Below, one piece after another: positions 4,443 through 30,898 of a stretch of 64,000 bases of DNA (position 1 is its first letter; each line of letters starts with the position of its first letter). The DNA is from Bacteroidota bacterium (GTDB taxonomy: Bacteria > Bacteroidota > Bacteroidia > AKYH767-A > 2013-40CM-41-45): assembly GCA_016711505.1 (NCBI GenBank), contig JADJSV010000002.1:199674-263673 (forward strand), given 5' to 3'. The position numbers and the translations under genes are program-made. The notes below the pieces were generated by a model. That model did no database searches. It worked only from the letters and a program-made list of their open reading frames with translations, and had not been told where the DNA came from.

Positions 4443-4482
4443 CACATTCAATCTAATTTAACCTTCCTAAAATAAAATAATC

Positions 4483-4731: not shown

Positions 4732-4781
4732 TCGGATATGTAAAGCAAGCGGATATGAATCACTTGTTTTTAAAATTTCTA

Positions 4782-4833: not shown

Positions 4834-4854
4834 AAACTTTGAATATCTTTTAAA

Positions 4855-5406: not shown

Positions 5407-5502
5407 GCAAAATCATTAAGCTAAAAACCATTAAATTAAGGACAGAGTATTCGCCAGCCGAAATGGGACTATTAATTTGAGGAATTTGATCTATTAGTTG
5501 AA

Positions 5503-9427: not shown

Positions 9428-9438
9428 TGTTGTTTGAA

Positions 9439-9708
9439 TTAGTGTTTTTTCATTTCAGATAATTCCATTCCACACTTTGGGCAATCTCCCGGTTTATCGG
9501 ATAGTACTTCTAGGTCCATCACACATTGGTAGAATGCTTCTCCATTTTTCAACATCGTTGTGTCAATATTGAAGTTTTGTGATGTGTTTTGACCTTGATT
9601 TGTTGTGGAATCGGGCAAAGTTCCTTTTTCACTTCTGTTTGATGAACTATTGCAGGCGCCTAGTAATATTATACTATTTAATGCTAGTAAAAGAATTGCA
9701 TTTTTCAT
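9439..9708 (-). CDS. Small lipoprotein with a C-terminal heavy-metal-binding domain (HMBD, CxxxDxxV...CPKCGM)
   Basis: Lipobox LLGAC. The C-terminus 'YQCVMDLEVLSDKPGDCPKCGMEL' matches the HMBD found at the N-termini of CusB-like adaptors. Confidence 0.65.
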   Translation of the reverse strand: MKNAILLLALNSIILLGACNSSSNRSEKGTLPDSTTNQGQNTSQNFNIDTTMLKNGEAFYQCVMDLEVLSDKPGDCPKCGMELSEMKKH

Positions 9709-9730
9709 TTATACTATTTACTTAGAGAGT

Positions 9731-10887
9731 TTACATTTTCATTCCCGGCATTTCTTGATGGCCTTCCATAGGGTTCGCTCCTTTTTTAAAAATATATTCG
9801 CTGTTCAATAAGTATGCACCTTTCACAACAACAACATCTCCTTCTTTCAATCCATCAATTATTTCAATTTGGCTACTGTTCTGCATACCTACTGTTACCA
9901 TTTTATTTTCAAACACTCCATCATTGTTTCTCACCCACACATTTGCTCCTTTACTATCCTGAACAATTGCATCTAAAGGCAGCACATAAGATTTTTTCTT
10001 TTCTGTTTGTAAGTTTATATTAGCTAACATTCCGGGCTTTATTTGTCTTGATGAATTAGTTAACTGAAATCTTGCCAAAACATACCGTTGTGGCGCTTGC
10101 ACTTGTGGATCAATAAAAACTACTTTCCCCGAAAACAATTCTTGAGTTGCAGCAGGAATAGAAAAACTAGCTTCCGTTCCAATTTTTATATAAGTTAAAT
10201 AGGGGAGATAGACTTGGGCTTCTACCCATAGTGCATTTATTGAAGCGAGTCGGAAAGAGTAGCGCCTGCTGAGACGTAATTCCCTTCATTAACAGATATT
10301 TCGCTCACAAAGCCCTCCGTTTTCGCAAACACCGGAATATTTTGCAGAATTTGCTTGGAGGTATTAAGTTGATCGATTTGCAATTCGCTCATTCCAAATA
10401 ACAGCAACTTATTTTTAGTGCTTTCGATAAAATCACCAGTTGAAAATGACTTTTGTAGAGCTAGCAAATATTCTTCTTGCGCCAAGTTTAAATCTTCACT
10501 GTAGATTTCATAAAGCATCTGACCTCTGCTAATGTATTCTCCAATGTTTCTTACGGCTAACTTTTCAATTCTTCCTTGGACTCTTGCACTGATAGCATCT
10601 GAAAGATTTTGGTCCACTGTAACTTTTCCTGTAAGGGTAATTTCTTTAGCCAACTCATGAACACGAACTGTGTCATATGTAATGTTACCTAATTGGATTT
10701 GTTGGGAACTTAGTTTTATTTGTCCCGTTTTGAGATTATTCCTTTTTACCTTAATCAGTTTCATGTGGCAAATTGGACAGTTGCCAGCTTTATTTTCTAT
10801 CACTTGCGGATCCATTGAGCATGTGAAATACTCATCTGATCCCGCCATCTCGGCCTGATTATTATTTTTTTTGCATGAAATTAGCAA
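9731..10887 (-). CDS. RND efflux membrane-fusion protein (CusB/CzcB-like) with an N-terminal HMBD. It is split into two frames (10237-10887 and 9731-10138).
   Basis: N-terminal 'YFTCSMDPQVIENKAGNCPICHMKL' (HMBD), followed by HlyD-family adaptor sequence and a C-terminal beta-barrel domain ORF in another frame. Confidence 0.7.
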
Positions 10888-10937
10888 CAGAATGGATGCT
10901 AAAAAAAAGCATCATGACTTGGTTTGCGATATTTATT

Positions 10938-12189
10938 TTATTTCTGTACATTATTTTCGGTTTGAATAAAGCTTTCGCTGTCTACCATAAATTGTGCATT
11001 GGCAGCAACCATTTCATTTTCTTTTAATCCGGATTTTATTTGAACCAATGAATCTGTGAAAGCTCCCGTTTGTATTAATTTAGTAACAAAACAGTTTTCT
11101 GATTTTACAAATACGATTTGATTATATCCTAAGTTTACAATTGCATTTCGTGGCAACCATATTCCCTTAATTTCTGATGAAGTAATATTAGCAGAAACCA
11201 GAGTACCTATTTTAAGTTGTCGGTCTTGGGAATTCTTCAAATACACTCTTGCTTTAATTGCAGAATAATTTTGACCGGCAACAGGTTCAATGTAACTGAT
11301 GGTGGATTGAATAACAGTAGTTGGATTTGCTTCAGTAGTGAGAGACTTTATCACCTATATTGATTAGTGCAGCATCTTGTGGAAATATATCCAACACTGC
11401 CCAAACCTGACTTATATTGTAAACCGAAAAAAATGCCTGACCACTTTGCAAATACATTCCTTCCTTAATTGAAAGTGCGGAGGTTCTTGAGGAGGAAAGA
11501 TTCTCAACTTGCATTTGTGTGGGCGATTCACTAGTTGTATTCATTCCTGAACTCATTCCATTCCCCTTGGAAGGTGCAGCAGAAGTAACTCCACTGCTAA
11601 TTCCTAAATCATGAATGTGCCCAGTATAAGGGCTGTATATTGGTAATGGATTTATCGGTTGTTTCGTGGTTTCAATTTGTTTAAGTTGTTCATTGTTTAA
11701 TCCTAGCAATTGTAATTTAGTTTTAGATGAATTGATGAGCGGAAAGTCCTTAATAGAACTGTTCAAAAGATAAATTAGATTTTGTTGTTCAGTCAAAATT
11801 TCCGGACTGTAGATATCCATGATTCGCTGACCTTTAAAAACATTTTCAAAATTGAAGCGCACATACAATTTTTCAATTCGCCCACTGAACCGTGCGCTGA
11901 TATTGTTGAGTGAGCGAGGATCGTAAACAATTACGCCTATTGCATTTAATCGGGGCGTGATCGTTTGTTGCATAGGTAGAATTGTTTTTACGTCACTAAA
12001 TACTGTTTGATTAGTTGGTTGTTCTAAGCCTTCCAACTCACTGGTCTTGTTTGCCTGAATGTGTTTGTGTTCGTCTCGGCTACTACAAGACGAGATGAAA
12101 ATCAGAATTGCAATCCCGATAAACACCGAGAAAGCAACGATCCCATTGCCTCTTGCCATGCCCTTATCGAATTTCCAATTCTTTTTCAT
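10938..12189 (-). CDS. RND efflux membrane-fusion protein (HlyD/CzcB family). There is a frameshift at the overlap 11332-11354.
   Basis: ORFs 11332-12189 and 10938-11354 overlap by 23 nt in different frames. The lipoprotein N-terminus and the adaptor coiled-coil/beta-barrel regions are both present. Confidence 0.7.
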
Positions 12190-13390
12190 ATTCTACTTGT
12201 AATTTAAAAAGTACATTCAATTGGTCTAATTCATTCATTTTTGCCATTCGATGCATCTTCAACGCATCAAGTACGACAAAAAGATCCTCTGTATTTTGCT
12301 CATAGGCAAGCATTGAGGTTTCATAACTCTTGAAATAGGTTGGAATTATCAGATTGGTATAATTAGTTAGTTGCTGCTTTGAATATTTCATTTGTGTCTG
12401 CAATGAGGCTATTTTCCCTGCTGTTTCATTGACAAGAGATTGTTTTTGATAACCTATAGCATTGAGGGTGTTGTTCAACCCTTTAATATTTGATTTGTAT
12501 TCTTTGGTTGCCCACGGCGCAATTGGAATTGTCATCATTCCCATTGCTGAATACTGATTAGGCATCATACCCAGTGATTGCATGTGACTTAGTGAAATTC
12601 CAAAGTCAGGCAAGCGTTTCGATTTTTCGTATTGCTGTTGGAATTTAAGTAAGCCAATATTTGCATCAAATTGTTTGATATCGCTGCGTGATGTTGTAAT
12701 AAGGAAAGTATCAATTAACTGCAATTCATAATCGTATGATATGAATGAGGTATCAACATCAAACTCATATGACTTGTCAATATTCATGAGAGTGTTAAGT
12801 TCAATATTTTTCATTTTCATATCGCCAACCAACATTGCTTCCATATTGCGTAATTCAAATAAGTCTGCCTGAGATTTGTAAATGTTATTGAGTTTTTCTT
12901 TGTTAAAGGTGAAACGATTTTGTGCAACCTGAACGATATAATTTAAAAGGGAATCGGTTTGCATCAATACATAGTATTTCTTTTGCAGCACTATCCATTC
13001 GTAATAATTCGTTTTAGCCATTGCGAACATTTCATTCTTCTTTGCAGCTTTTCCTTGTTGTTCAATTGAAGCCATGCCCTGCATAAATTGATAATTCGCC
13101 TTTTGTTTTGCAGGATTCGGAATCATTTGTTCTCCTGTTATCATCCACATCCCATCGCTAAAGTTTTTGTAGGGAGCTTGCCACGGACCTGTAGAAAAAG
13201 TGGGAGGCATCCAACTTTTTGCCATCTCCGAATAATTATTCGCAGCATTGATTTGCTCATCATACATTTTGAGCATTGGGTTATTACTTTCTATCCTACT
13301 CAAAACTGAGTCAATTGTCAACACTTGTCCGAATGTTTGAATTGCACAAACACAAAAAATAAATAGCAATATTCTTTTATTATTCTTCAT
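12164..13390 (-). CDS. TolC-family outer-membrane efflux protein (CzcC/CusC-like)
   Basis: Signal peptide, ~408 aa, with the typical OEP repeat composition. It overlaps the upstream czcA 3' end by 11 nt. Confidence 0.8.
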   Translation of the reverse strand: MKNNKRILLFIFCVCAIQTFGQVLTIDSVLSRIESNNPMLKMYDEQINAANNYSEMAKSWMPPTFSTGPWQAPYKNFSDGMWMITGEQMIPNPAKQKANYQFMQGMASIEQQGKAAKKNEMFAMAKTNYYEWIVLQKKYYVLMQTDSLLNYIVQVAQNRFTFNKEKLNNIYKSQADLFELRNMEAMLVGDMKMKNIELNTLMNIDKSYEFDVDTSFISYDYELQLIDTFLITTSRSDIKQFDANIGLLKFQQQYEKSKRLPDFGISLSHMQSLGMMPNQYSAMGMMTIPIAPWATKEYKSNIKGLNNTLNAIGYQKQSLVNETAGKIASLQTQMKYSKQQLTNYTNLIIPTYFKSYETSMLAYEQNTEDLFVVLDALKMHRMAKMNELDQLNVLFKLQVEYEKELEIR

Positions 13391-15326
13391 TTATTCCCGG
13401 CAGGATTATTTTTCCATGTTTTTTTAATTCTCTTTCCTTTCCCATTTCATAAATTATAGGTGTTACCAATAAGACATAAATAGTAGAAGTAATTACACCG
13501 CCAATCAAGGGAATTGTAATTGGCAACATCACATCGCTGCCCGTACCAGTTGACCAGAGTATAGGAATTAAGCCAAAGAGCGAAACGGAAACAGTCATTA
13601 ATTTTGGCCGCAACCGTTGAACGGCACCGTCCATTATGTATTTACGTAAATCAGCCTTTGAAATAGTTTCATTTGAATTACCTTTATCTTTAACCAACTT
13701 TTCCATATACTCATTAAGGTATATAACCATCAACATTGCTGTTTCAATTGCTACACCAAACAATGCGATAAAACCAACGGCAACGGCAACTGATAAATTC
13801 ACTCCATAGAAATAAACCATATACACTCCGCCTATTAATGCAAACGGAACAGTAATAATAGTCAGTAAAGCTTCTTTCAATGATTTGTAAGTAAAATACA
13901 ATACCATAAAAATGATAATAAGAACAATTGGCATTATAAATTTTAATGTTTTGTTCGCACGAATTTGATTTTCATATTGACCGCTCCATTCAAGGTTGTA
14001 ACCTTTCGGAAGTTTGGAAAACATTTTGTCCAATTTGTCTTGTGCTTCTTTCACTGTGCTTCCCAAGTCACGATCCCGTACATTGAACAATACTGTTCCC
14101 CGCAACATAGCGTTTTCTGAGTTAATCATTGGTGGACCTTCCGAAACAGTTACTTCAGCTACTGATGAAAGCGGAACGGTTCCATAATTCATAGTTTTTA
14201 TTGGAATTTGGTTTATGGCTTCTAAACTGTTTCTGTAGTCCTGTGCGAACCGTGCATTCACCGTAAATCGTTCTCTGCCTTCAATTGTTGTAGTTAGATT
14301 CATTCCCCCTAATGCAGTTTCAACATACATATTCACATCATCCACACTCAAACCATATTTCCCAATTTCGTTTTTTTTCACTGTAATATCCACATATCTC
14401 CCTCCTGTAACGGGTTCAACATATAAATCTTTAATGCCATTGATCCCTTGCAATTCATTTTTCATTTTTACCGCAAGAGTATAGATGGAATCTAGATTCT
14501 GTCCATAAATTTTCAATCCTACATCTGTTCTTATTCCTGTTGAAAGCATGTTGATTCGGTTGATAATAGGTTGAGTGAAACCGTTAACTACACCTGGAAT
14601 TTGCAACTTTGCATTCAATTCGTTAATTATCTCGTTCTTGGTTATACCGATTCTCCATTGTGCCTTTGGTTTCAATAGAATAATTGTTTCAATCATACTG
14701 ATTGGAGAATTATCGGTCGCTGTGTTTGCTCTGCCAGCTTTGCCTAATACATTTCCTACTTCAGGAACTGACATAATTAATTTATCCTGTACCTGTAAAA
14801 TTCTTTTAACCTCAGAATTTGATACATCTGGTAGTGTTACAGGCATGAACAGTATAGAGCCTTCATCCAATGGAGGCATAAACTCTGAGCCCATTCGAAA
14901 CAACATAATACCACCAACGGTGAGCGCTATTATATTTAGTGCTATTACTGTTTTTCGCCAATGCAAGCACCATTTCAAAATAGGAGAGTAAATCTTCTCC
15001 AAGACCCGCGTTACAGGGTTTGCACTTTCAGGTTTTAATTTCCCTTTTAGAATAAATGAAATCAAAACAGGTGCAAGCGTAATAGCAAGAAATGCATCAA
15101 TAATAAGTATGAAAGATTTTGTCCAAGCTAGTGGATGAAACATTTTTCCTTCAATACCGGTAAGTAAAAAAACGGGGAGAAAAGAGGTAATTACAACGAT
15201 GGTTGAATAAAACACACCAGGCCCTACCTGTTTCGAGGACTTTTCAATAATTTGTAATCGTTCTTTACTTTCCACCTTTGCAATTATTTTTAAAAAAATA
15301 GCGAAACTATTTATTAATAACAGCAC
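13380..15326 (-). CDS. czcA: CzcA/CusA-family RND pump, C-terminal fragment (about residue 415 to the end). The 5' ~50 nt of the ORF is AT-rich non-czcA read-through from a GTG.
   Basis: 'KERLQIIEKSSKQVGPGVFYSTIVVITSFLPVFLLTGIEGKMFHPLAWTKS' aligns to CusA TM5 onward, and the match continues to the conserved C-terminus '...MLPITIPLIGGVITSTIYVLLVTP'. Confidence 0.85.
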   Translation of the reverse strand: MLLLINSFAIFLKIIAKVESKERLQIIEKSSKQVGPGVFYSTIVVITSFLPVFLLTGIEGKMFHPLAWTKSFILIIDAFLAITLAPVLISFILKGKLKPESANPVTRVLEKIYSPILKWCLHWRKTVIALNIIALTVGGIMLFRMGSEFMPPLDEGSILFMPVTLPDVSNSEVKRILQVQDKLIMSVPEVGNVLGKAGRANTATDNSPISMIETIILLKPKAQWRIGITKNEIINELNAKLQIPGVVNGFTQPIINRINMLSTGIRTDVGLKIYGQNLDSIYTLAVKMKNELQGINGIKDLYVEPVTGGRYVDITVKKNEIGKYGLSVDDVNMYVETALGGMNLTTTIEGRERFTVNARFAQDYRNSLEAINQIPIKTMNYGTVPLSSVAEVTVSEGPPMINSENAMLRGTVLFNVRDRDLGSTVKEAQDKLDKMFSKLPKGYNLEWSGQYENQIRANKTLKFIMPIVLIIIFMVLYFTYKSLKEALLTIITVPFALIGGVYMVYFYGVNLSVAVAVGFIALFGVAIETAMLMVIYLNEYMEKLVKDKGNSNETISKADLRKYIMDGAVQRLRPKLMTVSVSLFGLIPILWSTGTGSDVMLPITIPLIGGVITSTIYVLLVTPIIYEMGKERELKKHGKIILPGINEE

Positions 15327-15383
15327 AAGTTACAATAAACAATTTTTTAAAATATGACTTCTGTCCTGTAATACAGCATATAA

Positions 15384-15602
15384 CTATTGCTTTACAACAC
15401 TTTCCAAGGCCATGTCACACTTAGGACAATTATCTGCTTTCGCTGAAATTACTTCCAAGTGCATTGGACACTGAAAAAATGTTTTTCCCGAATCAACTTT
15501 TGACGTGTCGAGAGTAAATGTGCTTGTTGTTGATCCATCTTTTGGTGATGAACACGCTACCATTAAAACTGCAATAGCGGAAATTACAAATGCTTTTTTC
15601 AT
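15384..15602 (-). CDS. Small lipoprotein with a C-terminal heavy-metal-binding domain (HMBD), paralog of 9439-9708
   Basis: Lipobox MVACS. C-terminus 'FFQCPMHLEVISAKADNCPKCDMAL'. Confidence 0.65.
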   Translation of the reverse strand: MKKAFVISAIAVLMVACSSPKDGSTTSTFTLDTSKVDSGKTFFQCPMHLEVISAKADNCPKCDMALESVVKQ

Positions 15603-15713
15603 ATTTTATTTATTTATTAACCTTGTTTTATTGTTCACTCTCGCTTCTAATAAATTACATTTTGAATCCATCTTGAATGCTTACATGCCATCTTTTATCA
15701 AGCATTTTTATAT

Positions 15714-17147
15714 TTATTGTCTGATAAATTTGCTTAACAATTCTCCCTTTTCTGTTTCAATTTTTAAAACATACATTCCATTTTCAGGAGAAATTTTCAA
15801 ATTTACTTCTCCATTGATTACCTGACATTTGCTGTTAATAGTACATTGCCCTAAAACATTTTCAATTTTAAAATTGTACTCTCCATCTGGAACCGCACTA
15901 AGTAGCATTTTAATTTCTTCAGAACCCGCGGGATTAGGATACAATAAAATTCTACCCGTTTCAACCACAGAAATATTTGTCGTCGGAATATAAATACCAC
16001 TTTTGAATTTTACAGTTCCTGAAATATCGTCTTGCCAAACGACATAGACATTTCCATCATGAATTGCAACGTCTGCGTTCACAACTCCTGCATTAGCAAT
16101 TGTGTCAGTTACCGGATTCAAGCCGTTATTTATATCAGATGAAAACCGTAATAGTGCTTTATTTTCACCTGAAACTGTTTCCTTCCACACTATTCCGACG
16201 GCAGACTCATAGTTTGAGATTCGTGGGTAGTTCTGATCATTATTACCTGATAATTGTTGAACAGATGTAAGCGACATATTACTGATAGACGAACTGCTGA
16301 AATAAACTTTTGGAGAACCACTTGCACCATTCATGAAAACCGAATACAGAGAATCTTCAACGATAACTCCATCTGGTCCCGTAGACGGACAAGCCATAAT
16401 CATCCAATTATTTAAATCAACATTCCAGCCGTTTGTAAACGATATAGCATTATCCATTGAGATACTTGTCCAGCTATCTCTAATATTGTTTAGGTTGTCA
16501 CGATAAAGCATAGCAACAGTATTTCCTTCGCTTACAATTGAACTCGGACAGCAATCACATACGACGCCACCTGACCAGCCACTTGCTAAAACATCTGTTA
16601 TAAAAGTATTTCCATAATCCGAAGATCTTGTTACCATCCATCTTGCATTTGAAAAGTTAGGATCCAATTTCATAAACCCAACTATTGGATTTCCTGAATC
16701 GTCTATTGTAACTGTTGGAAACCGACTAAGGTCAGGAGTAACGAAATCCACTTGAATTGGTGATGAAAATGACTGTCCACCATCAAAAGAACTGACAATG
16801 TAAATCGGGTTAACATCTTCGGGTGTTTCTTTGATCACAATGTAAACTGTATCTCCTCGTGAAGCAATGTCTGGCCCGGCCCAAGATGCAGTAAATACAG
16901 GGATTGAAGGTGGGTTGATCGTTATAGGGCTTGTAAACATTGTTCCGTTCCACTTGGAGAATTTACATTCATTTGACGATCCTTTTCCCCAAATAATCAT
17001 AGGATTTCCTGAAGCATCAGTAACAACTCTAGGATGAAGGTTCCCATCCATTGACATTGCAACGGTGACTTCAGATGACCATGTCACTTGCTGGGCATCT
17101 GCTCTTAGGATAAATAATATTGAGAGAAGTAGGATAAGATATTTCAT
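15714..17147 (-). CDS. Secreted BNR/sialidase-fold-like beta-propeller protein with a T9SS C-terminal sorting domain
   Basis: Signal peptide. The C-terminus 'LYPNPAGSEEIKMLL...GEYNFKIENVLGQ...MYVLKIETEKG' is a T9SS CTD. The body is Ser/Asp/Gly-rich, consistent with a propeller. Confidence 0.55.
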   Translation of the reverse strand: MKYLILLLSILFILRADAQQVTWSSEVTVAMSMDGNLHPRVVTDASGNPMIIWGKGSSNECKFSKWNGTMFTSPITINPPSIPVFTASWAGPDIASRGDTVYIVIKETPEDVNPIYIVSSFDGGQSFSSPIQVDFVTPDLSRFPTVTIDDSGNPIVGFMKLDPNFSNARWMVTRSSDYGNTFITDVLASGWSGGVVCDCCPSSIVSEGNTVAMLYRDNLNNIRDSWTSISMDNAISFTNGWNVDLNNWMIMACPSTGPDGVIVEDSLYSVFMNGASGSPKVYFSSSSISNMSLTSVQQLSGNNDQNYPRISNYESAVGIVWKETVSGENKALLRFSSDINNGLNPVTDTIANAGVVNADVAIHDGNVYVVWQDDISGTVKFKSGIYIPTTNISVVETGRILLYPNPAGSEEIKMLLSAVPDGEYNFKIENVLGQCTINSKCQVINGEVNLKISPENGMYVLKIETEKGELLSKFIRQ

Positions 17148-17155
17148 TTGTTAGA

Positions 17156-18883
17156 TTATAGTTTAATTATTTTACAATACTGAGATTTATGGTTGTCAGT
17201 AACTCTTAAAATATATATACCTGATTGAATACTGTGCAAGTCAATAATAAATTCTGATGAATTGTAATTCAATTTTTTTGAGAGAGCACAGTCTGGTTTG
17301 AGCTATTAAATACAGAGTATTCTATTTCTTTTTCAAAACCTTTCAGTGAAATCCTTACAGATCCGGAAACGGGATTAGGACTGCATTCTAACACTTCAAT
17401 ATTCTTACTTGGATTATTTATATCTGATGTTCCTGGTAAAACAACAAACGATCCCATCATACCATCATCTTCATGGTGTAGTAAATGACAATGATACATG
17501 TAAGGTATGGTGTCTGCAAAATCTTCAAACTTGGTTATAAAGGATACTGATTCATTAGGCATGACTAAAACAACATCCTTCTTCACTTGTTCTGAAACAG
17601 GAACAGAAATACCATTGACATCGGTGACATAAAATTGTACATCATGAATATGAAATGGATGGGCGATCAGTGTATTATTTATTAAAGTCCATTTTTCAAC
17701 ATGATTTAAATAGGTAGTATCGTTTATCGTATCCATACTAAATTGATGTCCATTGATTGTAAATGGACCTTCAACCATTTCCATCGGCCCCATAGTTTGT
17801 GGCGCAAAAACGATATCTCTTGTTCTGTTTATCAGACTAGCATCAATTGGTTGGAAATTAACTAATGAAGTTGGAATAGAGGTAACGGATTAAGTGTTGG
17901 GGCAACAACATTTATTTCAAGAAGATCATAATCCGCACCATTTAAGAAATTCAGGTTGTAGTCGGGAATTTGACTCATTCCATTTCCAACATTTTGAGCA
18001 CCTAGAATTCCATCAGGTAATCCACTGCCGTAATTCATCATTGAAATAGTTTGCCCCTGCATTCCGGTAAGATCAATTAGAATTTCAGCTCTTTCTCCGG
18101 GTGATAATTGTAATCGGTTTTTTGCAATAGGGGATCTAACTAAACCACCATCCGTTGCGATTTGATAGAAAGTCATATTGTTTGAGAAACCAAATAAGAA
18201 TGAACGATCAGATGCACCATCGAGTAATCTAAAACGCACAACTTGCGCAGGTGCATTAAAAAAAGCATCGATGGTCGCATTGATCATTGGCACAGTATCA
18301 AACACAGTAGCAATTGCTGTCTGATATAGTACATCAAAACATTTGGTCTGAACTATAAGTGGAACATCATCTATTCCATAAGTTCTCGTAAATTCAATGC
18401 TGATTCAGCACTGTCTTTCACTATTATTAATCCTGCAAGTCCTTTTGAAACTTGAATATCAGTACGATTTTGACCATGTGGATGATACCAATATGTTGCA
18501 GCATCATTCATTACGGTAAATGAAGGCGACCAGGTTGCTCCCGGCATGATCATTTGGTGTGGACCACCATCCGCATGTGCAGGAACATGTAAACCATGCC
18601 AGTGCATAGTTGTAACCGGTGGAATATTGTTTGTTACATTCAGTGTTACATTGTCACCTTTATTTAAAATCAACGTTGGGCCAAGAATGTTTCCATTAAC
18701 ACCATAAGTCGGGGTTTGATGGCCTGCAAAAAATTCCGTTGAATCCGCTTGAACCGTTAAATTGAAATTTGTACCCGACAAAGTGGGTGGAATAAATAAA
18801 GGATTTTGTGAATACGATTTATTAGCAATGACGAAAAGGATCGTCACTGCTAATAAATTGAATATTGATTGTTTGTTTTTCAT
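17156..18883 (-). CDS. Multicopper oxidase (three-domain laccase/CueO-like) with a T9SS C-terminal sorting domain. It is split over about 4 frames.
   Basis: Domain 1 carries HWHG and WYHPH. Domain 3 carries HPFHIHD and HCHLLHHEDDGMMG (T1/T2/T3 copper ligands). The tail '...EFIIDLHSIQSGIYILRVTDNHKSQYCKII' reads in another frame after an A7 run. Confidence 0.8.
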
Positions 18884-19662
18884 TAGTGAGCAATATTTAT
18901 TCTTTTGTTAATTGATTTGCCATTACTAAGGATTTGTACTGTATAAACACCGGATGGGATGCTAGACAGGTTCGAACTTACTTTATGGATTCCGCTGTTG
19001 GCTTCTTCATTTGCAATCTCGCGAATTAATTTTCCTGAAACATCTAACAGATTGATCGTAACATTAGTCTTTGATTTCATATTCAATTCAATTGAGAATA
19101 GATCATTCACAGGATTTGGATACAATGAAACATTTTCAATTGTTGCAGGTAAATCATTTACTTTTGACGTTGCAAAGAAGTTTCTTGCCGCAATACCAAT
19201 TGCAGTTGTATCACTTATGGAAAATCCCACATTTGTAAAAAGCACATCATGTCCTGACCCTGCAGCAACTGCTACAGTTGGCATTCCGAAGCCTCCATAA
19301 TAAGCAACCAATGCCGCACCCTGATCGAATATTGCACTATTGAATCCATTTGTGTTTTTGAATCCGGACATAGTAGCGCAAGTGTAGCTATTCGTGTAAG
19401 CGATCTGATACCACTTTACTCTGCCCGGATATTCTGCCTGAAGATCCATGACCATTGCCTCAATAGCATGCCCAGCAGCTATACAAGAATTGCAAGTCAT
19501 GACAAATTCCATGATCACAACCTGACCTGAATCAAGTTCAGAGAATAAATGATGTGATTGACCATCGCAATCAACTTTTGTAAAATCCATCGCAGTCGTT
19601 TGAGCTTTGGAAATCACCGAAACGAACATCAAAGCAATCATTAGATAAAATGATTTTTTCAT
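18883..19662 (-). CDS. Thioredoxin-fold (CxxC) protein with a T9SS C-terminal sorting domain
   Basis: 'GQVVIMEFVMTCNSCIAAGH' is a TlpA/redoxin-like CxxC context. C-terminus 'LYPNPVNDLFSIEL...LLDVSGKLI...GVYTVQILSNGKSINKRI'. Confidence 0.5.
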   Translation of the reverse strand: MKKSFYLMIALMFVSVISKAQTTAMDFTKVDCDGQSHHLFSELDSGQVVIMEFVMTCNSCIAAGHAIEAMVMDLQAEYPGRVKWYQIAYTNSYTCATMSGFKNTNGFNSAIFDQGAALVAYYGGFGMPTVAVAAGSGHDVLFTNVGFSISDTTAIGIAARNFFATSKVNDLPATIENVSLYPNPVNDLFSIELNMKSKTNVTINLLDVSGKLIREIANEEANSGIHKVSSNLSSIPSGVYTVQILSNGKSINKRINIAH

Positions 19663-19747
19663 TTTGTTTTATTGTTTTTTGAATTATGTATAAATAGGAA
19701 TAGTCGCCCTTCCGAAATGGAGGCGACGCTTAATAGAAAGTATTATT

Positions 19748-20129
19748 TCAAATTAAGAAAGTACTGTTTCGCTTGTAAATAGGAGCCTGATTTAAATTAG
19801 GCGGTGGTTTGTCCAATGAGAAATGGACGTATTCAGAAAAAGAGATAAGAGATTTAACATCAAAAATCGTTGGTATTAATAATGAGAACTGGTAATTAAG
19901 AAATGAAGAGGTTGAAGATTTACTGTGAACAGACTTAACTTTAAAATACTTGATCTCATTTTTACAGCAATCGGGATTCATTTCCCCTTTACCGCATTTG
20001 CAAGAATGTTCATCTGTAAAAACAATCTGCACAGAACTAATTTTTTCCGCAATAATGAAATTGAAGTCCGACACCGAAGGTGGTCACGGAATAAATAATC
20101 AAAATAAGGAAGGAGATCAATCGCTTCAT
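19748..20129 (-). CDS. HYC_CC_PP-family small secreted protein (motifs HYCG, DCCKNE, PPP). There is a frameshift after the signal peptide.
   Basis: An upstream frame gives MKRLISFLILIIYSVTTFGVGLQFHYCGK, then the ORF continues '...CKCGKGEMNPDCCKNEIKYFKV...LDKPPPN'. The family assignment is from memory. Confidence 0.45.
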
Positions 20130-20612
20130 TAAGGTCGAAGATAAGCTATTTGCATTTAACTTCAAAAAATGAAAGATTAAATTGAATTTAACCAATTGAT
20201 TGAAGAATCAGGGGTTTCATACAAATTTCGAAATTTACTTAGAAATGAAATATTTAAATCTTTTTAGATGAAACTCACAAACTGCATTTGTACTCCTCAC
20301 TGGACTGAGTTTGAACCTATTTTATGAGGATTTGAAGAGATTAAAGGGTGTAAAGGAAGTTTTGGTCTAAATTTTTAAAAAGATGAGTCCTTGTTTCAAA
20401 AAAGCTGCATTATTTCAAATGGCATTAAAATCAAACCCTGCTTCAAAATAAGATTACTTCACTTTCATTCAGCGAAAAGTATGTGGAAAGGAGAGCCTAA
20501 AACATTTATTTAGGTGATTTCTATCATTTCTCGTAATGAGGTATATCATCTCATTCCTGATTTCATTAATGGAGATTTACAAATCAATATAATATATACT
20601 AAAAAAAAGAAA

Positions 20613-21978
20613 ATGGAAACGAAATATCTACATAATATAATAATTGTGCTTGGGCTACTTTTCTCATTCAATAACACAAATGCTCAATGTGGTCCGGCAG
20701 GAAATGGAACTAATGGTGGAATCCATTGCATGTATCCGGACTCAATGCGAAATTGCTTATATGTTGGAGGTGGATTTCATAATTCTGGAATGGATACGAT
20801 AAATCATTGTGGTTATTGGAATGATAGTACCTATTTTCCAATGTCGATGATGGGAAATAATGGGTGTAATGATTCAGTATGGTGTTTCGCCATGTTTAAT
20901 GGTGATTTATATGTTGGAGGCGAATTTACACAGGCTGGTGGAGTTGCATGCAATCATATTGCAAGATGGGATGGAACTAGTTGGTATGCTGTAGGAGACG
21001 GTTTTAATCAACCTGTACATGCATTGGCAGCATTCAACTACGAACTTTATGCAGGTGGCGATTTTACTTCTTCAGGTGCAACCACTTTAAACATATAGCA
21101 AAATGGTCTGGCTCCAATGGAATCAAATTGGCACCGGAACTAATGATGATGTTGAAGCTATGTGCGTTTGGAATAATGCTCTATATATCGGTGGAGATTT
21201 TACTATTGCAGGCGGGATTACCGTCAATCGAATTTGTAAATGGGATGGTACCAATTTTCGTTCTGTTGGTAGTGGCTTCACTTCCGGAATGGGACAATGC
21301 ATGGTGCATTCACTTTGTGTTTACAATGGAAATTTATGCGCAGGTGGCATGTTTGAGCACGCAGGAACAAATGACATGCACAACTTGGCAATGTGGAACG
21401 GTTCAAATTGGTCCTCACTTGGAGACATCGATGGTTCAGGAATGGGCGATAATGTAGTTAGTGCAATGTGTGCTTATAATGGACATCTATTTATTGGCGG
21501 TAATTTTGGTTCATGTGGCTCAACCTCATCAAGCAATTTAGGAATGTGGGATGGTTCTTCTTGGTCAAGTATCGGAACAGGAATAGACGGCCAAGTGAAT
21601 TCTCTTGCTGTCTATCACAATGAGCTTTACATTGGTGGTTCATTTACAAATGCTGCTGGAACTTCTGTAAATAATATTGCTAAGTACTCCCTAATATCGG
21701 TATTCAACCAATTGATGTTAAGATTAATTCAATCAAGGTTTATCCTAATCCGGCAATTGATTATGTGCAAATAAGCTGGATTAACGAGCAATCATCAAAA
21801 ATAATTTTGAGCATAACAGATATTACCGGAAGGATTCTATTTGAAAAAAATGAAGGTGAAATTGCTGTTGGTTTTCATCAGGAACTTGTTCCGAAATTAT
21901 TTAAGTAATGGAATTTATTTCGTTACTCTCAATTCAACGGATAGAAAATATTCACTTAAGTTTCAAATAAACAAGTAG
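20613..21978 (+). CDS. Secreted beta-propeller-repeat protein (~50-aa repeats 'LYVGGxFTxAGGxxxNxIAxWDGxxW') with a T9SS C-terminal sorting domain. There are at least 3 frameshifts.
   Basis: Signal peptide METKYLHNIIIVLGLLFSFNNTNAQ. Repeats fill ORFs 20514-21098 and 21103-21774. The CTD 'IKVYPNPAIDYVQISW...ITDITGRILF...GIYFVTLNSTDRKYSLKF' is recovered in other frames. Confidence 0.6.
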
Positions 21979-22123
21979 GGTTAAAAATATTTATTCTTTG
22001 GAAGTTTTAATGATAGCAGTTCTGGGAATTGCATGTAAAGTGGGCACTTAAGTGCATCAACCTCAGAACTGCTTATCGGAACTAGACGAATGAGTTTAAT
22101 TCATTGGCTGATTCCTAAGTAGT

Positions 22124-22708
22124 TCAATTTATAAGCCGTTTAAAACTACAAAACAAAAAATTCTGAATGGTGTTGAACGGTGTCTTGTGATCTTCGGTCA
22201 AACATTTCAGTTTAGTAAAACCATCACTTAACTGATGTTGAAGTTCTTCTTCAGTATATTGGTGTACATCAAGCATACTGCATTTTTTCGGCCCCTTATC
22301 TGAAAAAGTTCCTATAACCATATATCCATTTACAGCTTGTCGTGCAGTTTCGAGATAAACATTCATATCATCTGAACTTGTAAGGAAATGGAAAGTTGCC
22401 CTGTCGTGCCAACAATCATAACTCGATGAAGGTTTGAACTCTGTTACATCACTCACAATCCAATTTACTTTTATAGCTTTTTCTCCAAGCCGTTGCTTCG
22501 CCCTATTAATTGCCGTTTCCGAAATATCGAGAACAGAAATATTTTCATAGCCTTCATTGAGTAGATAGTCAACAAGATTACTATCACCTCCTCCTATATC
22601 AATTATATTTGCAGACTTCGGCAAATTAAAGCTATGAAAAAAATCTAATGACGTTTTAGGGATTTCTTGTGTCCAACTAACTTCATTTGGTTGCTTGGTT
22701 GAATACAC
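22124..22708 (-). CDS. Class I SAM-dependent methyltransferase (TehB/TPMT-like), small
   Basis: 'NIIDIGGGDSNL' glycine-rich SAM motif. ~194 aa. Its start overlaps the upstream ATPase gene by 26 nt. Confidence 0.65.
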   Translation of the reverse strand: MYSTKQPNEVSWTQEIPKTSLDFFHSFNLPKSANIIDIGGGDSNLVDYLLNEGYENISVLDISETAINRAKQRLGEKAIKVNWIVSDVTEFKPSSSYDCWHDRATFHFLTSSDDMNVYLETARQAVNGYMVIGTFSDKGPKKCSMLDVHQYTEEELQHQLSDGFTKLKCLTEDHKTPFNTIQNFLFCSFKRLIN

Positions 22709-24590
22709 TTTTTCCCAATGTCATTAGATTTAAACTTATCAATATTACTATTAAGGTTACACCAACATCAGCAGCAATCGCAAAAACCAAATTGCTATAA
22801 CCCATAAAAGCGAGAATAATAAATATCACTTTTACGGCAATTGCTCCTGTAGTATTGATCTTGATTGTTCTGAGTGTTCTTTTCGAAAGTTGAATTAGAA
22901 AAGGGATAAGGGAAAGCCTATCATTCATTAATGCAATATTAGCAGTTTCAATAGCTGTATCACTTCCTGCTGCCCCCATTGCAATCCCAACAGTCGATTG
23001 TGCAAGTGCGGGAGCATCATTAATACCGTCACCTACCATTGCAACATTTTTATACTTTGTTAGAAGAGCTTTTATTTTTTCTGATTTATTTTCCGGCAAT
23101 AACCCACCATAGCTTTCATTTATTCCTACAATTGCAGATGTGTGTTTAGCAGCTTTATCACTATCTCCTGTCAACATAATTACATTTACTCCCATATTTT
23201 GAAGCTGACTTATTGCTTCTTTACTGTCCGGTTTAATTTCATCCATTAAACCAATGATTCCTGCAACACCATTACCAAAACTTACAACTACACTTGTTTT
23301 CCCTTCTGAAGAAAGTTTTTCTACTATTTTTTCTGCTTCCTCAGTCACAGGTTGATGCTCTTCTATAAAACTTAATTTACCAATGAAAATGGTTTCATCT
23401 TCGCAAACAAGACACTCCGCAATTGCACCTTTACCCGCAACACTTTTGAAATTCTCAACTTGATGCGGAGTTAATCCTTCTTTTTTTGCCGCATCAATAA
23501 TCGCTTCCGCTAAAGGATGTTCAGAAAAAACCTCTGCACCCGAAGCACAGGCAAGTAATTCTTCTTTATCAGTTCCATTCATTGGAATAACATCTGAAAC
23601 GATTGGCTTCCCAAAGGTAATAGTTCGGGTCTTGTCAAGACAAATAGCTTTAATCTTTGCCATTGCTTCAAGATACTTACCACCTTTAATTATAATTCCC
23701 TTTGAAGAAGCATTTCCTATTGCAGCATAAATAGCGACAGGAGTAGAAATTACTAAAGCACAAGGACAAGCTATCACCAACAATGTAATTGCTTGCTGTA
23801 ACCATTTTTCTAAAGGTTGATCTAAAATGAAAACAGGTATGCAAAAAACAAGAACTGCCAAAATAATAATGGAAGGTGTATAATACTTCGAGAATTTTTG
23901 AATGAACTTCTGTGTATCTGATTTTGTTGCTTGAGCTTCAAATGTCAATTTAATGATCTTTGAAAAGGTAGTGTCTGTTGACAATTTAGTAGTTTCAATT
24001 TCGATGAAACCGTTCTTATTGAGAGTTCCAGCAAAAACAAAGTCCCCTTCATGCTTGTCTTTAGGAATTGGTTCGCCTGTTATTGCAGCTTCATCAACTG
24101 TTGTATTTCCTGACACAATCTTTCCATCCAATGGAATCATTCCGCCCGGTTTAACTTGAACAATTGAACCTATGGCGATTTGATCAATCTGTATTTCACC
24201 ACCTTCCTTTAATGTAGCTATTTTAGGTGATTTAGAAACCAATTCATCCAGTGCATTCTTACTGTTCTCGATTCCTATATCCTCTAATCTTTCACCCAGA
24301 ACATAAAGGACAATTACAACTGCTGCCTCTGGATATTCCTTCAGATAAAATGCACCTACAACTGCTATAAGCATCAATAAATTAATACTACTAAATTTAA
24401 GCTTCACAAGCGCTTTTAATCCGTTCCAAAGGACGCTGTAGCCAAATCCTATAATTAATACTGCAAATACATACGGAGCGTATAGAGGAGGCACTTCTAT
24501 TCCAGTGAGAGAAAGAATTTCAAGTGTTACAACTACTATTACCGCAAAAAGAAGAAAGAGAAATTTTTTATCGTTTATTGGTATCTTCAT
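22683..24590 (-). CDS. Heavy-metal P1B-type ATPase, Zn/Cd/Pb (ZntA/CadA-like), with no N-terminal metal-binding domain. The phosphorylation motif reads DKTRT instead of DKTGT.
   Basis: CPC in TM6, 'AADVGVTL' in TM8 (Zn-type Asp), TGEP, GDGINDAPAL. Codon cga (R) sits in 'CLDKTRTITFG'. Confidence 0.85.
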   Translation of the reverse strand: MKIPINDKKFLFLLFAVIVVVTLEILSLTGIEVPPLYAPYVFAVLIIGFGYSVLWNGLKALVKLKFSSINLLMLIAVVGAFYLKEYPEAAVVIVLYVLGERLEDIGIENSKNALDELVSKSPKIATLKEGGEIQIDQIAIGSIVQVKPGGMIPLDGKIVSGNTTVDEAAITGEPIPKDKHEGDFVFAGTLNKNGFIEIETTKLSTDTTFSKIIKLTFEAQATKSDTQKFIQKFSKYYTPSIIILAVLVFCIPVFILDQPLEKWLQQAITLLVIACPCALVISTPVAIYAAIGNASSKGIIIKGGKYLEAMAKIKAICLDKTRTITFGKPIVSDVIPMNGTDKEELLACASGAEVFSEHPLAEAIIDAAKKEGLTPHQVENFKSVAGKGAIAECLVCEDETIFIGKLSFIEEHQPVTEEAEKIVEKLSSEGKTSVVVSFGNGVAGIIGLMDEIKPDSKEAISQLQNMGVNVIMLTGDSDKAAKHTSAIVGINESYGGLLPENKSEKIKALLTKYKNVAMVGDGINDAPALAQSTVGIAMGAAGSDTAIETANIALMNDRLSLIPFLIQLSKRTLRTIKINTTGAIAVKVIFIILAFMGYSNLVFAIAADVGVTLIVILISLNLMTLGKSVFNQATK

Positions 24591-24601
24591 TTGAATTAAA
24601 A

Positions 24602-25234
24602 TTAAATTAACCTGTGAGTTTGGAGCATATACATAGAATACTTTTCACCATGTTGGACTTTCAAGTGAGCTTCCTCCAATCTTATCTGAATCTGTATAAT
24701 AAAATATGTTAGGACGAGGGTTGTTAAACTTAATGCATTAGGTAAAATCAAAAACAAACCGGAAGCCGTCAGGATCATTCCTAAAAATACAGGATTGCGG
24801 CTTATTTTGAACACGCCACTAGTAACAAGATCCGTACTGTTAATTTCATCAATTCCAATTCGCCAGTTTTCTTTCATTTGTTTTTGTGCTATACCTATCC
24901 AAATCAAAGAAGCGTGGATGATAACTAAGCCCACAATTTTGGAATTCTTATTATCTAAATAGTGAATTGAGCTAAGGAAATTGTAATACTTATCACTTAA
25001 GGAATATAGACAGATATTTAATGCAATCCCTATGACTATTATTTTCATTACAAGACCAATATAATCATGCACACTGTCTGACCGCTTAAAAGTTATAGGA
25101 TTTATTCCTTTTAACTTATAAACACGGTAAGACGGAATAATGAATATAAGTAACAGATAAATTAATAAATAGATTGGCAAGTATATTTTAAGAATGTTAA
25201 TCATGTTTCTAATTTTAATGTTCGTGGGCTTCAC
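24602..25234 (-). CDS. Isoprenylcysteine carboxyl methyltransferase (ICMT/PEMT)-family membrane methyltransferase
   Basis: Multi-TM protein ending 'GVFKISRNPVFLGMIL...EEAHLKVQHGEKYSMY', the ICMT-family C-terminal signature. GTG start. Confidence 0.6.
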   Translation of the reverse strand: MKPTNIKIRNMINILKIYLPIYLLIYLLLIFIIPSYRVYKLKGINPITFKRSDSVHDYIGLVMKIIVIGIALNICLYSLSDKYYNFLSSIHYLDNKNSKIVGLVIIHASLIWIGIAQKQMKENWRIGIDEINSTDLVTSGVFKISRNPVFLGMILTASGLFLILPNALSLTTLVLTYFIIQIQIRLEEAHLKVQHGEKYSMYMLQTHRLI

Positions 25235-26458
25235 CCTGATTAGTCATTTTGGCTAATAGAAAAAATGCGCCATTCACTACTACTTTGCTGTTTTGAGGTA
25301 TATCCTGAAGCAATGAAATCTCAGAATAGCCAATATCGGTAGTCCCTTTTTTAATTGCTATTCTTTCAAATGTAAGAGAGCCTTCAGGTAATTCTTCATG
25401 ATGCTCATGATCATGTGCCTCCTCACTTTTTCTGCGGTTGAATGCTTTTCTTCTGCTTCCTTTTCAGTTACAATAAATATAAAGTCTTGTCCTTCACTGC
25501 TTACAATAGCGTTTGTTGGTATTGCATCAACAGTGGCATTCTCTAAACTAACTAAAGCTGTAATACTCATTCCGTCAATCAGACCTTGCCGATTACCTTT
25601 TACGGTAGCATGTACTGCTATTGCTTTAGTACTTTGTTCAAATGTATTGCTGATTGCAAAGACGTCTGCATCATACTCCTTACCGGGATTGTTGGTTAAC
25701 GTAAAGTGAATAGTTTGAGCTACTTTTAATTTTGCCAAATCCTTTTCATATACATATAAATCCAAATGCAGTTGATCATTATCTACTATTTCAGCAATAG
25801 GATTATTAGCTTCTACATAACTTCCTATGTTAACAAGTACATTACTTATCGCACCATTGATTGGACTTTTTATATTTGCAACAGATTGAATGTTGTCAGA
25901 TGTAATATTCTCTGTATTAAAACCAATTAATTCCAACTGTTTTCTTAAACTTGATTTTCTCGCTTTTAAGGACTTTAATTCTGATTCGGCACTTTGCAGA
26001 TTTTTCAAAGCGCCTGCATTTCCCTGCTGTAAATCTTTTTGCCTTGCAAGTTCCTGTTCTGCAAATACGGATTTTGCAGAAACATTTATGAATTCTTCTT
26101 GCATTATTATAAATGAATTGTTTGAAATCGTTGCTATCACTTGTCCCTCTCTAACTTCATTTCCGGTTTGAACTAGAATCGATTTAATTACTCCGCCCAA
26201 TGAAGCAGTTGCAGTAGCTCTATTTTGATTGGGTACTTTGAGAATACCATTGGCCTTTAATGAAGCCGTTAACTGCTTTTTCTCAATATTTCCTAATTCT
26301 ATTTTGATTGATTTTATTTGTTCCGGTGAAAGCGAAACCGAATTTGAAAACTCCTCTGATTCATGATGCTCGGTTTCTTCTTCCTTGTGATTATGATTAT
26401 CTTTACAGGAAGCAAAAAATGTCAGTGCAATAGCTGCTATGGTGATTATGTTTTTCAT
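25216..26458 (-). CDS. RND efflux membrane-fusion protein (CzcB-like). There is a frameshift near 25440, and the true C-terminus extends to about 25216.
   Basis: The 366-aa ORF gives lipoprotein plus adaptor domains. An alternate frame gives the conserved end 'EGSLTFERIAIKKGTTDIGYSEI...VVVNGAFFLLAKM'. Confidence 0.75.
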
Positions 26459-26465
26459 TTTAAGA

Positions 26466-27665
26466 TTATTTGTTAAGTAAGTAATTTAAATTTATCACAG
26501 ACTGATTCATTTGATTGACAGCATTGAGATAGGCAAGTTGTATGTCAATTGCTGTTTGAAGAGCATTGAGATACTCGATATAACCAATTTCGCCGGACTT
26601 TAGACCAACGCTAGCTGTATTGGTAACAACATCTGAATTGTTTAATCCTGTTGATCTATAATAGCTATAGACAGAACGACTCTGCTCATACTTATTCAAT
26701 GCATTCTGAAAATGGACTACAATATCCGTTTTCATTTTTTCTTTCTTTTACTAATGATTGCTGCCTGAATTTATAAGACTTGATCCGTGAACTGCTGCTA
26801 AAGAAAGTCAGAGGTATATTAACACCAAAATTAAATCCTGTAAATCGTTTATCAGATTCATAGTAAACTTCGCTACCATTTACATTCTGAAAACCAATTA
26901 TACTTTGATTGTTATATCCAATACTAAATTCAGGAAGAACATTTGCAGATTCTACTTGCTTTGTTTTCTCCGCAATCAAAGCCTCTTGAAATATCAGTTT
27001 TAATTGAGGATTTTCATTGAGAAGGAAGTGTCCGTTAATTCTGTAAGATTAAAAATCAATGTGTCTGCTTCCGGGATCAACACAAATTCATCTTTTAGAT
27101 TTAAAAGTGATTTTAATGAAAGATAGACTTCTGAATATTCTCTTTCGTATTGTGTCTTTAAGATAGTTAATTGTCCCCGTTTTGATTCTGCTGTTGCTTT
27201 CTCTAGCAAATTACTTTCACCGCTTTTATAACGTACTTCAGAAGCACTTACAAAATTGGAATAAAGGCTATCAAGAGAATTGAGTTTAACATTTACGTTT
27301 CGTAAATACTGCATTTGATAAAATAACGATCTTATTCGCGTTCTGACTTCATTGATTTTTGCATTCCCTTTTAGCTCTGCACCTTCAAATTCTGCTTTAT
27401 ATAAACCAGCCTTTGCTGAATAGACCGTAGGAAAAGGAATATTTTGCTGAATTGACAATCCGTTATCCTTATTGATGCTATTATATTGACCGTATTGATA
27501 TTGAATCTCTGTTTTAGGAAGTTCAAATACAGATTTTTTTAATGCTGCTGAGGATTTTATATTAAGTTGTTCAGATTGGATTTCTAAATTGTCTTTTAGT
27601 GCTTTATTTATTGCATCAGGCAAACTCAGATTTTGCTGAGCATTTACTTTAAATGACTTAAGCAA
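26466..27665 (-). CDS. TolC-family outer-membrane efflux protein, fragmented into 3 ORFs
   Basis: ORFs 27000-27665, 26692-26979 and 26466-26735 together give OEP-like N-terminal, middle and C-terminal segments. Confidence 0.7.
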
Positions 27666-30802: not shown

Positions 30803-30898
30803 TATATATCAGTTAAAATGAATAAATACACAGATTACTACAAAGCAAATGCTAAGTAGAAAAAGTGATTACTCGTTGACAACGAGTTTAGAAATTCA

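Follow-up and report, generated by a model that had tools for sequence, protein, structure and literature searches.

What is understood of copper detoxification by multicopper oxidases comes mainly from Proteobacteria, in which the enzyme resides in the periplasm after export by the twin-arginine (Tat) pathway. In the PcoA/PcoC and CopA/CopC systems the multicopper oxidase is encoded together with a small copper-binding protein whose likely task is to present Cu(I). In Rhodobacter capsulatus CutF is essential for activity and maturation of the oxidase CutO, and the CopG-like CutG, a Cu-thiol oxidoreductase, contributes; CxCC is the copper-cluster motif of CopG and CutG (PMC8456105). CutF-like proteins are described there as having fewer than 170 amino acids, a signal peptide, a central Cys motif, a C-terminal PP and an adjacent oxidase gene (PMC8456105). 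In Porphyromonas gingivalis HBP35, a thioredoxin-motif protein with a conserved C-terminal domain, is secreted by the Por/type IX secretion system (T9SS) (PMC2907840, PMC3120885), and is a precedent for a thioredoxin-like protein as T9SS cargo. Here we analysed a gene block at positions 15714-20129 in a stretch of 64,000 nucleotides from a Bacteroidota bacterium (contig JADJSV010000002.1), which as a whole is called the window below. The block encodes a CueO-type multicopper oxidase and, directly upstream, a thioredoxin-fold CxxC protein, called the partner in the following, and both end in a T9SS sorting domain. The pairing of these two genes is common among Bacteroidota, not rare. To the reading that the block is one copy of a conserved Bacteroidota operon for a Cu(I) oxidase at the cell surface or in the medium, served by a dedicated partner that handles copper or thiols, we give roughly even chances.

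Layout of the gene block

Four genes are ordered head to tail on the minus strand from position 20129 down to 15714: an HYC_CC_PP small Cys-rich protein (19748-20129), the partner (18883-19662), the oxidase (17156-18883) and a seven-bladed beta-propeller protein (15714-17147). A first-pass annotation made from the letters alone had described this block at 15714-20129, and all four genes are present there on the minus strand. The frames of the partner (259 amino acids) and of the propeller protein (477 amino acids) are intact. The oxidase has 576 amino acids once repaired and the HYC_CC_PP protein about 126-127, and all domain scores reported for these two refer to conceptual translations after single-site repairs. 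The ATG of the oxidase gene and the stop codon of the partner gene share one nucleotide (TAATG at 18883), and the same junction was found in two related loci, L006 and L001. The stop codon of the oxidase and the ATG of the propeller gene are spaced by 8 nt. Scans for sigma-70 promoters, a Bacteroidota promoter pattern and terminators gave counts at or near chance, from which operon limits are not derivable.

Sorting domains and predicted export

The T9SS type A sorting domain is described by the NCBIfam model TIGR04183 (cut-off 23 bits) and its Pfam counterpart PF18962. The partner, the repaired oxidase and the propeller protein scored 43.5, 40.4 and 38.1 bits on TIGR04183, respectively, and cleared the threshold of PF18962 as well; in the partner the domain comprises residues 180-259. 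This hidden Markov model (HMM) check confirms that three consecutive genes end in sorting domains, as had been proposed. N-terminal Sec signal peptides were recognised by sequence reading (...VISKA/QTT, ...KSYS/QNP and ...RADA/QQV, the slash marking the predicted cleavage site), and the Gln following the cleavage site is conserved in alignment A2. Since both the oxidase and the partner carry a Sec signal and a type A sorting domain, T9SS export is expected for both, and we infer from these sequence features that they reach the cell surface or the medium. The 64-kb window encodes at least eight sorting-domain proteins, which points to the presence of a T9SS in the host.

A CueO-type multicopper oxidase

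The oxidase is composed of the domains Cu-oxidase_3 (PF07732), Cu-oxidase (PF00394) and Cu-oxidase_2 (PF07731). The CueO-type ligand pattern HxH, HxH, HxxHxH and HCHxxxHxxxxM is found in the form of the motifs HWHG, HPH, HPFHIH and HCHLLHHEDDGMM, all of which align with solved CueO-type structures. The description of the protein as a multicopper oxidase with all copper-ligand motifs therefore stands for the conceptual translation. Among solved structures, copper efflux oxidases of the CueO type come nearest (E 1.8e-71); laccases (about 1e-42), bilirubin oxidases and CotA also match significantly. The signal is of the Sec type and lacks a twin-arginine (RR) motif.

The thioredoxin-like partner

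The partner consists of a signal peptide (residues 1-20), a TlpA/ResA-like domain (about 21-170) and the sorting domain. An AlphaFold model built from 82 sequences (predicted local distance difference test, pLDDT, 87.4) shows a thioredoxin fold in which the CxxC sits at the N-terminal end of helix 1 and a cis-Pro loop is present, bearing out the earlier description as a thioredoxin-fold CxxC protein. Among thioredoxin-fold classes it comes nearest to the reducing TlpA/ResA/DsbE class and not to DsbA. Residues 1-175 gave no Pfam or NCBIfam match at E<=0.01, Thioredoxin, Redoxin and AhpC-TSA included; a sequence search with the family profile, in contrast, brought up 2m72 (E 4e-5) and 3gl3 (E 4.9e-4).

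The codons for the active-site motif M55-T-C57-N-S-C60 lie at about 19483-19500. Across the 82 family sequences C32, C57, C60, C95 and G-M127-P128-T129 are invariant, and M55 and H138 are each present in 81. The local motif of the family is M-(x)-x-C-x-x-C; MTCNSC, its form in the window, also fits the HMA-domain signature MxCxxC. A Met preceding the cis-Pro is unusual among thiol-disulfide oxidoreductases. The partner does not have the Sco1/SenC copper site of CxxxC plus distal His. Its putative pocket lined by Cys and Met would resemble Cu(I) sites.

Occurrence of the gene pair

We scanned one genome per species and found 351 loci, of which 80 were kept for analysis. Apart from three loci labelled Chlorobiota, Akkermansia and Patescibacteria, all kept loci (77 of the 80) are labelled Bacteroidota. 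Where at least 2.5 kb of downstream sequence was available, the oxidase lies on the same strand within 2.5 kb downstream of the partner in 65 of 67 kept loci. A sorting domain is present in 69 of 72 oxidase open reading frames (ORFs) of related loci. About 44 pairs abut (-18 to +90 nt), and about 22 show a gap of 660-700 nt. The linkage is still seen at about 40% identity, and since the arrangement recurs across distant genomes it is not due to chance. The combination had been called unusual in the first-pass annotation; the 351 loci, the near-obligate pairing in the testable kept loci and the precedent of HBP35 speak against this.

In a large protein collection the 259-amino-acid protein has 306 relatives, almost all of 250-265 amino acids, whose annotation does not go beyond "T9SS type A sorting domain-containing protein". 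Look-ups by exact sequence of this protein and of a lipoprotein from the flank returned no record. A search with the N-domain alone against 1.84 billion cluster representatives gave 490 relatives, and the best 150 of these are nearly all 250-270 amino acids long. Since this is the size of the domain plus the tail, the N-domain appears to be essentially restricted to T9SS cargo encoded beside the oxidase. Fusion proteins of partner and oxidase were not found among the best 150 of the 490 relatives, the longest of which has 359 amino acids.

The surroundings of the pair are more variable. An HYC_CC_PP-type gene lies upstream in about 36 of the 80 loci and a propeller gene within 10 kb in 25, which makes the propeller a frequent yet optional accessory. 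Other metal genes (P1B ATPase, heavy-metal efflux resistance-nodulation-division (HME-RND) pump, heavy-metal-binding domain (HMBD) protein or a second oxidase) are present within 10 kb in 32 of the 80 loci. Neighbours in other loci include CopA, DUF3347 and a second oxidase, and many are further sorting-domain proteins.

The 660-700-nt gap occurs in about a quarter of the related loci, for example L010, L021, L045, L054, L064, L070 and L076, and at 10782-11456 in L004. Where examined, the gap holds an ORF for a sorting-domain protein of about 230 amino acids with the conserved motif W-E-A-S-V-C-D-N-x-x-C-Y and no Pfam domain. A few related loci carry instead a sorting-domain protein of 282 amino acids with a CxxCH haem-binding-like motif.

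Accessory proteins of the block

After repair of one frameshift the HYC_CC_PP protein scores 36 bits on NF047658 (cut-off 28), in agreement with the small secreted Cys protein annotated next to the partner gene. It has an N-terminal hydrophobic segment, the motifs HYCGK and CKCGK...CCKNE and a C-terminal KPPP. Judged by sequence reading, these features agree with the CutF-like set given above, as a resemblance and not as homology. Homology to DUF2946/CutF was considered and rejected: four members of the HYC_CC_PP family gave no match to DUF2946 at E<=10, and there was no HMM-level match to other Pfam families either.

The structure model of the propeller protein has seven blades (pLDDT 88.9, predicted template modelling score 0.84), whereas the sialidase fold of BNR propellers is six-bladed. 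It has no BNR Pfam match, although its sequence contains Asp-box-like motifs and PF13088 is found in a few homologues. The family is strongly conserved (mean column identity 57%), with an invariant C197-D-C199-C200-P encoded at about 16548-16559 and a fourth invariant Cys 53 residues further on, in C253-P-x-x-G-P-D. The likeness of this CxCC to the CopG/CutG copper-cluster motif may serve as a lead.

Between the oxidase block and the Cus pump genes lies a gene for a small HMBD lipoprotein (15384-15602, minus strand; PF19335, 38.5 bits), and L006 has an equivalent in the same place. A further small Cys-rich protein, of family DUF6660 (CSPFCFCSCCS ... PPKIS; 30899-31222, minus strand), heads the operon of a second, Czc-type pump. 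It parallels HYC_CC_PP at the head of the oxidase operon, both being small, membrane-anchored and Cys-rich with PP near the C-terminus.

Interrupted reading frames

In the window the oxidase is spread over three frames, with insertions or deletions (indels) near 18391, 17886 and 17272-17281, the last within the sorting domain at an A-run (17273-17279). As written, the protein would end after 170 residues. The HYC_CC_PP gene is interrupted by a 2-nt deletion near 20040, beside an A-run. The first-pass annotation had made its reading depend on undisrupted copper sites in the error-corrected sequence: the ligand motifs are indeed present in the translation, but the reading frame, about which it gave only a hint, is broken.

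L006, a segment of a Bacteroidota metagenome-assembled genome (JBMQEM010000068.1), aligns to positions 8892-20190 and 22717-31347 of the window with about 92% nucleotide identity. Every gene in it is a single ORF, and the oxidases of L006 (575 amino acids), L001 and L004 are intact at 573-575 amino acids. Programmed frameshifting in the oxidase was rejected, since the gene is a single ORF in these three loci and no motif is common to the three sites. Compared with L006, the window shows mostly 1-2-nt deletions, and the genes affected are those for the oxidase, HYC_CC_PP, both CusB proteins, the second RND pump and its outer-membrane factor. In the 20 kb that can be aligned with L006, at least 11 indels break a reading frame. 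Substitutions are mainly third-position or synonymous (134 synonymous and 65 non-synonymous codons in the oxidase, 66 and 9 in the C-terminal part of CusA). A single in-frame stop was found in about 6,000 codons, inside a pump ORF of 1457 amino acids in L006, where it may be the normal stop between two genes. In L006 this ORF (1231-5604) comprises the second RND pump and the outer-membrane factor, reflecting either a lost gene boundary or a fusion.

Contigs of the same species (99.0-99.4% nucleotide identity) lack the 1-nt deletion at 39758 which splits an island gene for 282 amino acids (39296-40143). They also lack a 2-nt A-run deletion at 51858, through which a chromosomal protein of 889 amino acids in four other assemblies is shortened to 873 in the window and its sorting domain truncated. 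This is the sole coding indel in the compared chromosomal flank of about 14.6 kb. At 60400-61895 two overlapping ORFs of 113 and 385 amino acids look like one gene split at a T-run.

From the sequence comparisons the frame breaks in the oxidase and HYC_CC_PP genes are probably residual indel errors of the assembly. The competing explanation is that the module is dead in this genome, a relic in a decaying island with real small deletions, so that nothing would be secreted from this copy. The number of frame-breaking indels relative to L006 fits this, as do the additional ones elsewhere (the integrase, the restriction-modification gene and the gene for 282 amino acids) and the occurrence of several outside homopolymers. 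With only one coding indel in the flank, the island has an indel density about 7-10 times as high, a pattern that would also fit true decay of the copy in this genome. We nevertheless regard a dead copy as rather unlikely and favour assembly error, because apart from the one probable natural stop no nonsense was added in about 6,000 codons, the substitutions follow a pattern of purifying selection, the indels are mostly 1-2-nt deletions like long-read consensus errors, and the flank gene was hit at an A-run too. Moreover, short-read contigs of the same species all break about 0.5-1.5 kb inside the island, which we take as strain variation that is hard to polish; consensus errors would be expected to cluster in such an element. 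The many frameshifts of the island in the window should not be taken as biology unless the reads are checked.

The genomic island

The block lies in a genomic island of 38.7 kb (1616-40313), bounded by perfect direct repeats of 47 bp (1616-1662 and 40267-40313). The right copy is the 3' part of a tRNA-Val(TAC) gene (40270-40345). A tyrosine integrase with a Phage_integrase domain (1743-3025) adjoins the left repeat, and same-species contigs break about 0.5-1.5 kb inside the island, in line with a tRNA-integrated element. An HTH_17 protein is encoded near the right end (38931-39242) and an MmeI-like restriction-modification gene at 35772-37955. No conjugation genes were recognised among the ORFs scanned, and an Rfam scan of the window returned tRNA only. 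Besides the genes discussed above, indels have broken the integrase, CzcA and TolC (three pieces each), a sorting-domain protein at 3259-4442, a gene at 33161-34040 and the restriction-modification gene.

On the minus strand the island encodes an intact copper-translocating P1B-type ATPase (CopA-like; 5503-7449; TIGR01511, 574.7 bits against a cut-off of 397) and a Cus-type efflux operon (8159-15326). It also holds a ZntA-like ATPase and the second, Czc-type pump preceded by the DUF6660 protein. The view of the module as cargo of a mobile metal-resistance island thus applies to the window, with its repeats, tRNA-Val, integrase and metal genes. It does not hold as an intrinsic trait, since elsewhere the module is mostly found in other contexts, with other metal genes within 10 kb in the 32 of 80 loci mentioned above.

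In the Cus operon CusA is split and permuted. The operon starts with the C-terminal part (13380-15326; TIGR00914 positions 431-1042) and continues with a TolC-like gene (12164-13390), two CusB genes (9731-12189, both frameshifted), an HMBD lipoprotein (9439-9708) and finally the N-terminal part of CusA (8159-9427; TIGR00914 positions 1-427). The break point is located in the cytoplasmic loop between transmembrane helices 4 and 5. The permuted order with intact genes is also found in L001 (9046-10944 and 14881-16149), in L006 (14392-16287 and from 20242) and probably in L045. Compared with L001, one half differs by 182 synonymous and 38 non-synonymous codons and the other by 281 and 64, indicating purifying selection. 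We rejected truncation of CusA as an assembly artefact, since the halves are complementary, occur in the same order and intact in L001 and L006, and are under purifying selection.

L006, although collinear in other respects, lacks a segment of 2.5 kb (20190-22717), on which lie a DUF5122/Rax2-like propeller gene with a T9SS sorting domain (plus strand, 20514-22050, several frameshifts) and the gene for a SAM-dependent (S-adenosylmethionine) methyltransferase (22124-22708). Self-comparison of the window revealed a near-palindrome of 54 nt (92.6%) at 4782-4835. Perfect inverted repeats of 31 nt are located at 60105-60135 and 60212-60242 beside a 9-nt tandem repeat (60096-60123). A 7-nt tandem repeat, TTCACTT, with 8.9 copies lies at 55197-55258 in an intergenic position upstream of a cytochrome c peroxidase-like gene, and its copy number varies among the same-species assemblies L090-L093. 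The chromosomal flank further contains a gene for an MbnP-like protein (56334-57092) and one for a MauG/CCP-type (cytochrome c peroxidase) di-haem peroxidase (55257-56270, minus strand), according to the Pfam labels of the identical genes in L090-L093. Such a pair is associated with copper acquisition elsewhere. The host has more copper-related genes outside the island.

Proposed function and alternative readings

The genes of partner and oxidase are co-inherited, often translationally coupled and frequently located beside copper export genes. Together with the domain assignments this leads us to infer roles in the oxidation of copper and in thiol redox. The oxidase would act beyond the outer membrane, turning toxic Cu(I) into Cu(II) and complementing the neighbouring CopA and Cus exporters. 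The partner would act as its dedicated helper, with a pocket lined by the CxxC, M55 and M127: it may bind Cu(I) and deliver the metal to the oxidase, either to be oxidised or to fill its copper sites; alternatively, it may keep the cysteine of the type 1 copper site reduced until copper is inserted. By analogy, HYC_CC_PP may play a CutF-like role in the maturation of the oxidase.

Several observations weigh against a surface Cu(I) oxidase with a dedicated partner. On NF008205, the CueO equivalog model, the oxidase scores 338.6 bits and stays under the cut-off of 525 bits. The Met-rich insert that known cuprous oxidases have is missing, and a phenolic compound, Fe(II) or Mn(II) could be the substrate instead of Cu(I). 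With our limited query set, no other metal gene was detected within 10 kb in 48 of the 80 loci. A site shared by M55, M127, C32 and C95 of the partner is putative, and H138 was placed in a hairpin turn which in thioredoxin folds usually faces away from the active site. An extracellular CxxC protein without an obvious electron source argues against a catalytic reductase outside the cell. T9SS core genes are absent from the 64-kb window. Neither experiments on the four families nor a published characterisation of one of them came to light; in the library searched, no paper was found that describes a T9SS multicopper oxidase, HYC_CC_PP or the Bacteroidota thioredoxin-like partner, so that "uncharacterised" was an apt label.

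The missing Met-rich insert, the score below the equivalog cut-off and the 48 loci without a detected metal gene would also suit a secreted laccase-type or Mn/Fe oxidase that acts outside the cell on organic matter or minerals, with phenolics and humics as examples of substrates. The partner would then protect the oxidase or recycle quinone or radical products, and the link to metal resistance would be secondary here. Many T9SS cargo enzymes are degradative, the neighbours elsewhere often are further sorting-domain proteins, and laccases, bilirubin oxidases and CotA are significant matches too. We consider this explanation unlikely, however, since the best solved matches are copper efflux oxidases, by E 1.8e-71 against about 1e-42 for laccases. 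The repeated adjacency to CopA, HMBD, Cus, DUF3347 and second oxidase genes argues in the same direction, and the Cys/Met motif of the partner and the CutF-like small protein suit copper handling better. A different explanation starts from the close linkage and translational coupling of two genes, one for a CxxC thioredoxin fold and one for an O2-reducing oxidase, and from the export tag common to both products. In such an extracellular thiol oxidase system the partner would make or isomerise disulfides and be re-oxidised by the oxidase with O2, replacing DsbB/quinone; an electron donor for a reductase would not be expected outside the cell anyway. This we hold to be highly improbable: the fold is nearest to the reducing TlpA/ResA/DsbE class and not to DsbA, the copper-gene context would be left unexplained, no fusions were seen among the best 150 relatives, and we know of no precedent for a multicopper oxidase oxidising a thioredoxin-fold protein.

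Quite improbable, too, is a self-contained extracellular redox couple, in which the oxidase either re-oxidises the CxxC protein with O2 or accepts its Cu(I), and HYC_CC_PP and the CxCC propeller represent new copper-trafficking classes. If true, it would constitute a T9SS-delivered surface catalyst for disulfide formation or copper handling, independent of DsbB/DsbD or a periplasmic electron supply. If the reading as a surface Cu(I) oxidase with a dedicated partner is correct, many Bacteroidota place a CueO-type oxidase beyond the outer membrane via T9SS, in every case together with a dedicated thioredoxin-fold protein which to date is seen in no other architecture. It would then become testable where and how an oxidase routed through Sec and T9SS is loaded with its four coppers, whether a TlpA-like fold was co-opted as Cu(I) carrier and whether HYC_CC_PP is the Bacteroidota counterpart of CutF. 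Three unannotated families, the thioredoxin-like protein with its tail, the CxCC propeller and HYC_CC_PP, are defined by their genomic linkage to copper.

Comparison with described systems

Within the thioredoxin superfamily TlpA, ResA, CcmG, DsbE and Sco1 are the natural references for the partner. It differs from them in lacking a WCxPC or CxxxC signature and in having M-x-C-x-x-C, a Met before the cis-Pro and two more invariant Cys, and it ends in a sorting-domain tail where those proteins have a membrane anchor. With HBP35 it has in common a thioredoxin motif and the routing via Por/T9SS, which for the partner is predicted. HBP35 is tied to haem use, whereas the partner is tied to a copper oxidase, and beyond the sorting domain no sequence relationship between the two was detected (the tail alone matched 5y1a).

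The proposed pairing of an oxidase with a small partner would be functionally analogous to PcoA/PcoC and CopA/CopC. CopC is cupredoxin-like, whereas the protein described here has a thioredoxin fold, and those systems are periplasmic and Tat-dependent in contrast to the T9SS routing predicted here. A closer likeness in gene arrangement exists to cutFOG of Rhodobacter capsulatus (PMC8456105). In both, the oxidase gene is flanked by a small protein with a Cys motif and a C-terminal PP and by a copper-handling protein with a cysteine motif, a need for or benefit from the accessory genes in oxidase activity being claimed for cutFOG itself. The differences concern the partner, which is TlpA/ResA-like with CxxC while CutG belongs to the CopG family with CxCC, and its position upstream of the oxidase in translational coupling. 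In addition, all products of the block but HYC_CC_PP are T9SS-tagged, and the host is a member of the Bacteroidota instead of the Proteobacteria.

The oxidase itself is best compared with CueO of E. coli, with which it has in common the fold of three domains and every ligand of the type 1 and trinuclear copper centres; its gene, too, is located among copper-export genes. It departs from CueO in its Sec instead of Tat signal, in the missing Met-rich insert and in its NF008205 score (338.6 against 525 bits), and it ends in a T9SS sorting domain, which puts its predicted site of action outside the outer membrane. The CueO-type oxidase, the TlpA-like fold and the T9SS sorting domain are each of a known kind; new are their conserved combination and the predicted export route.

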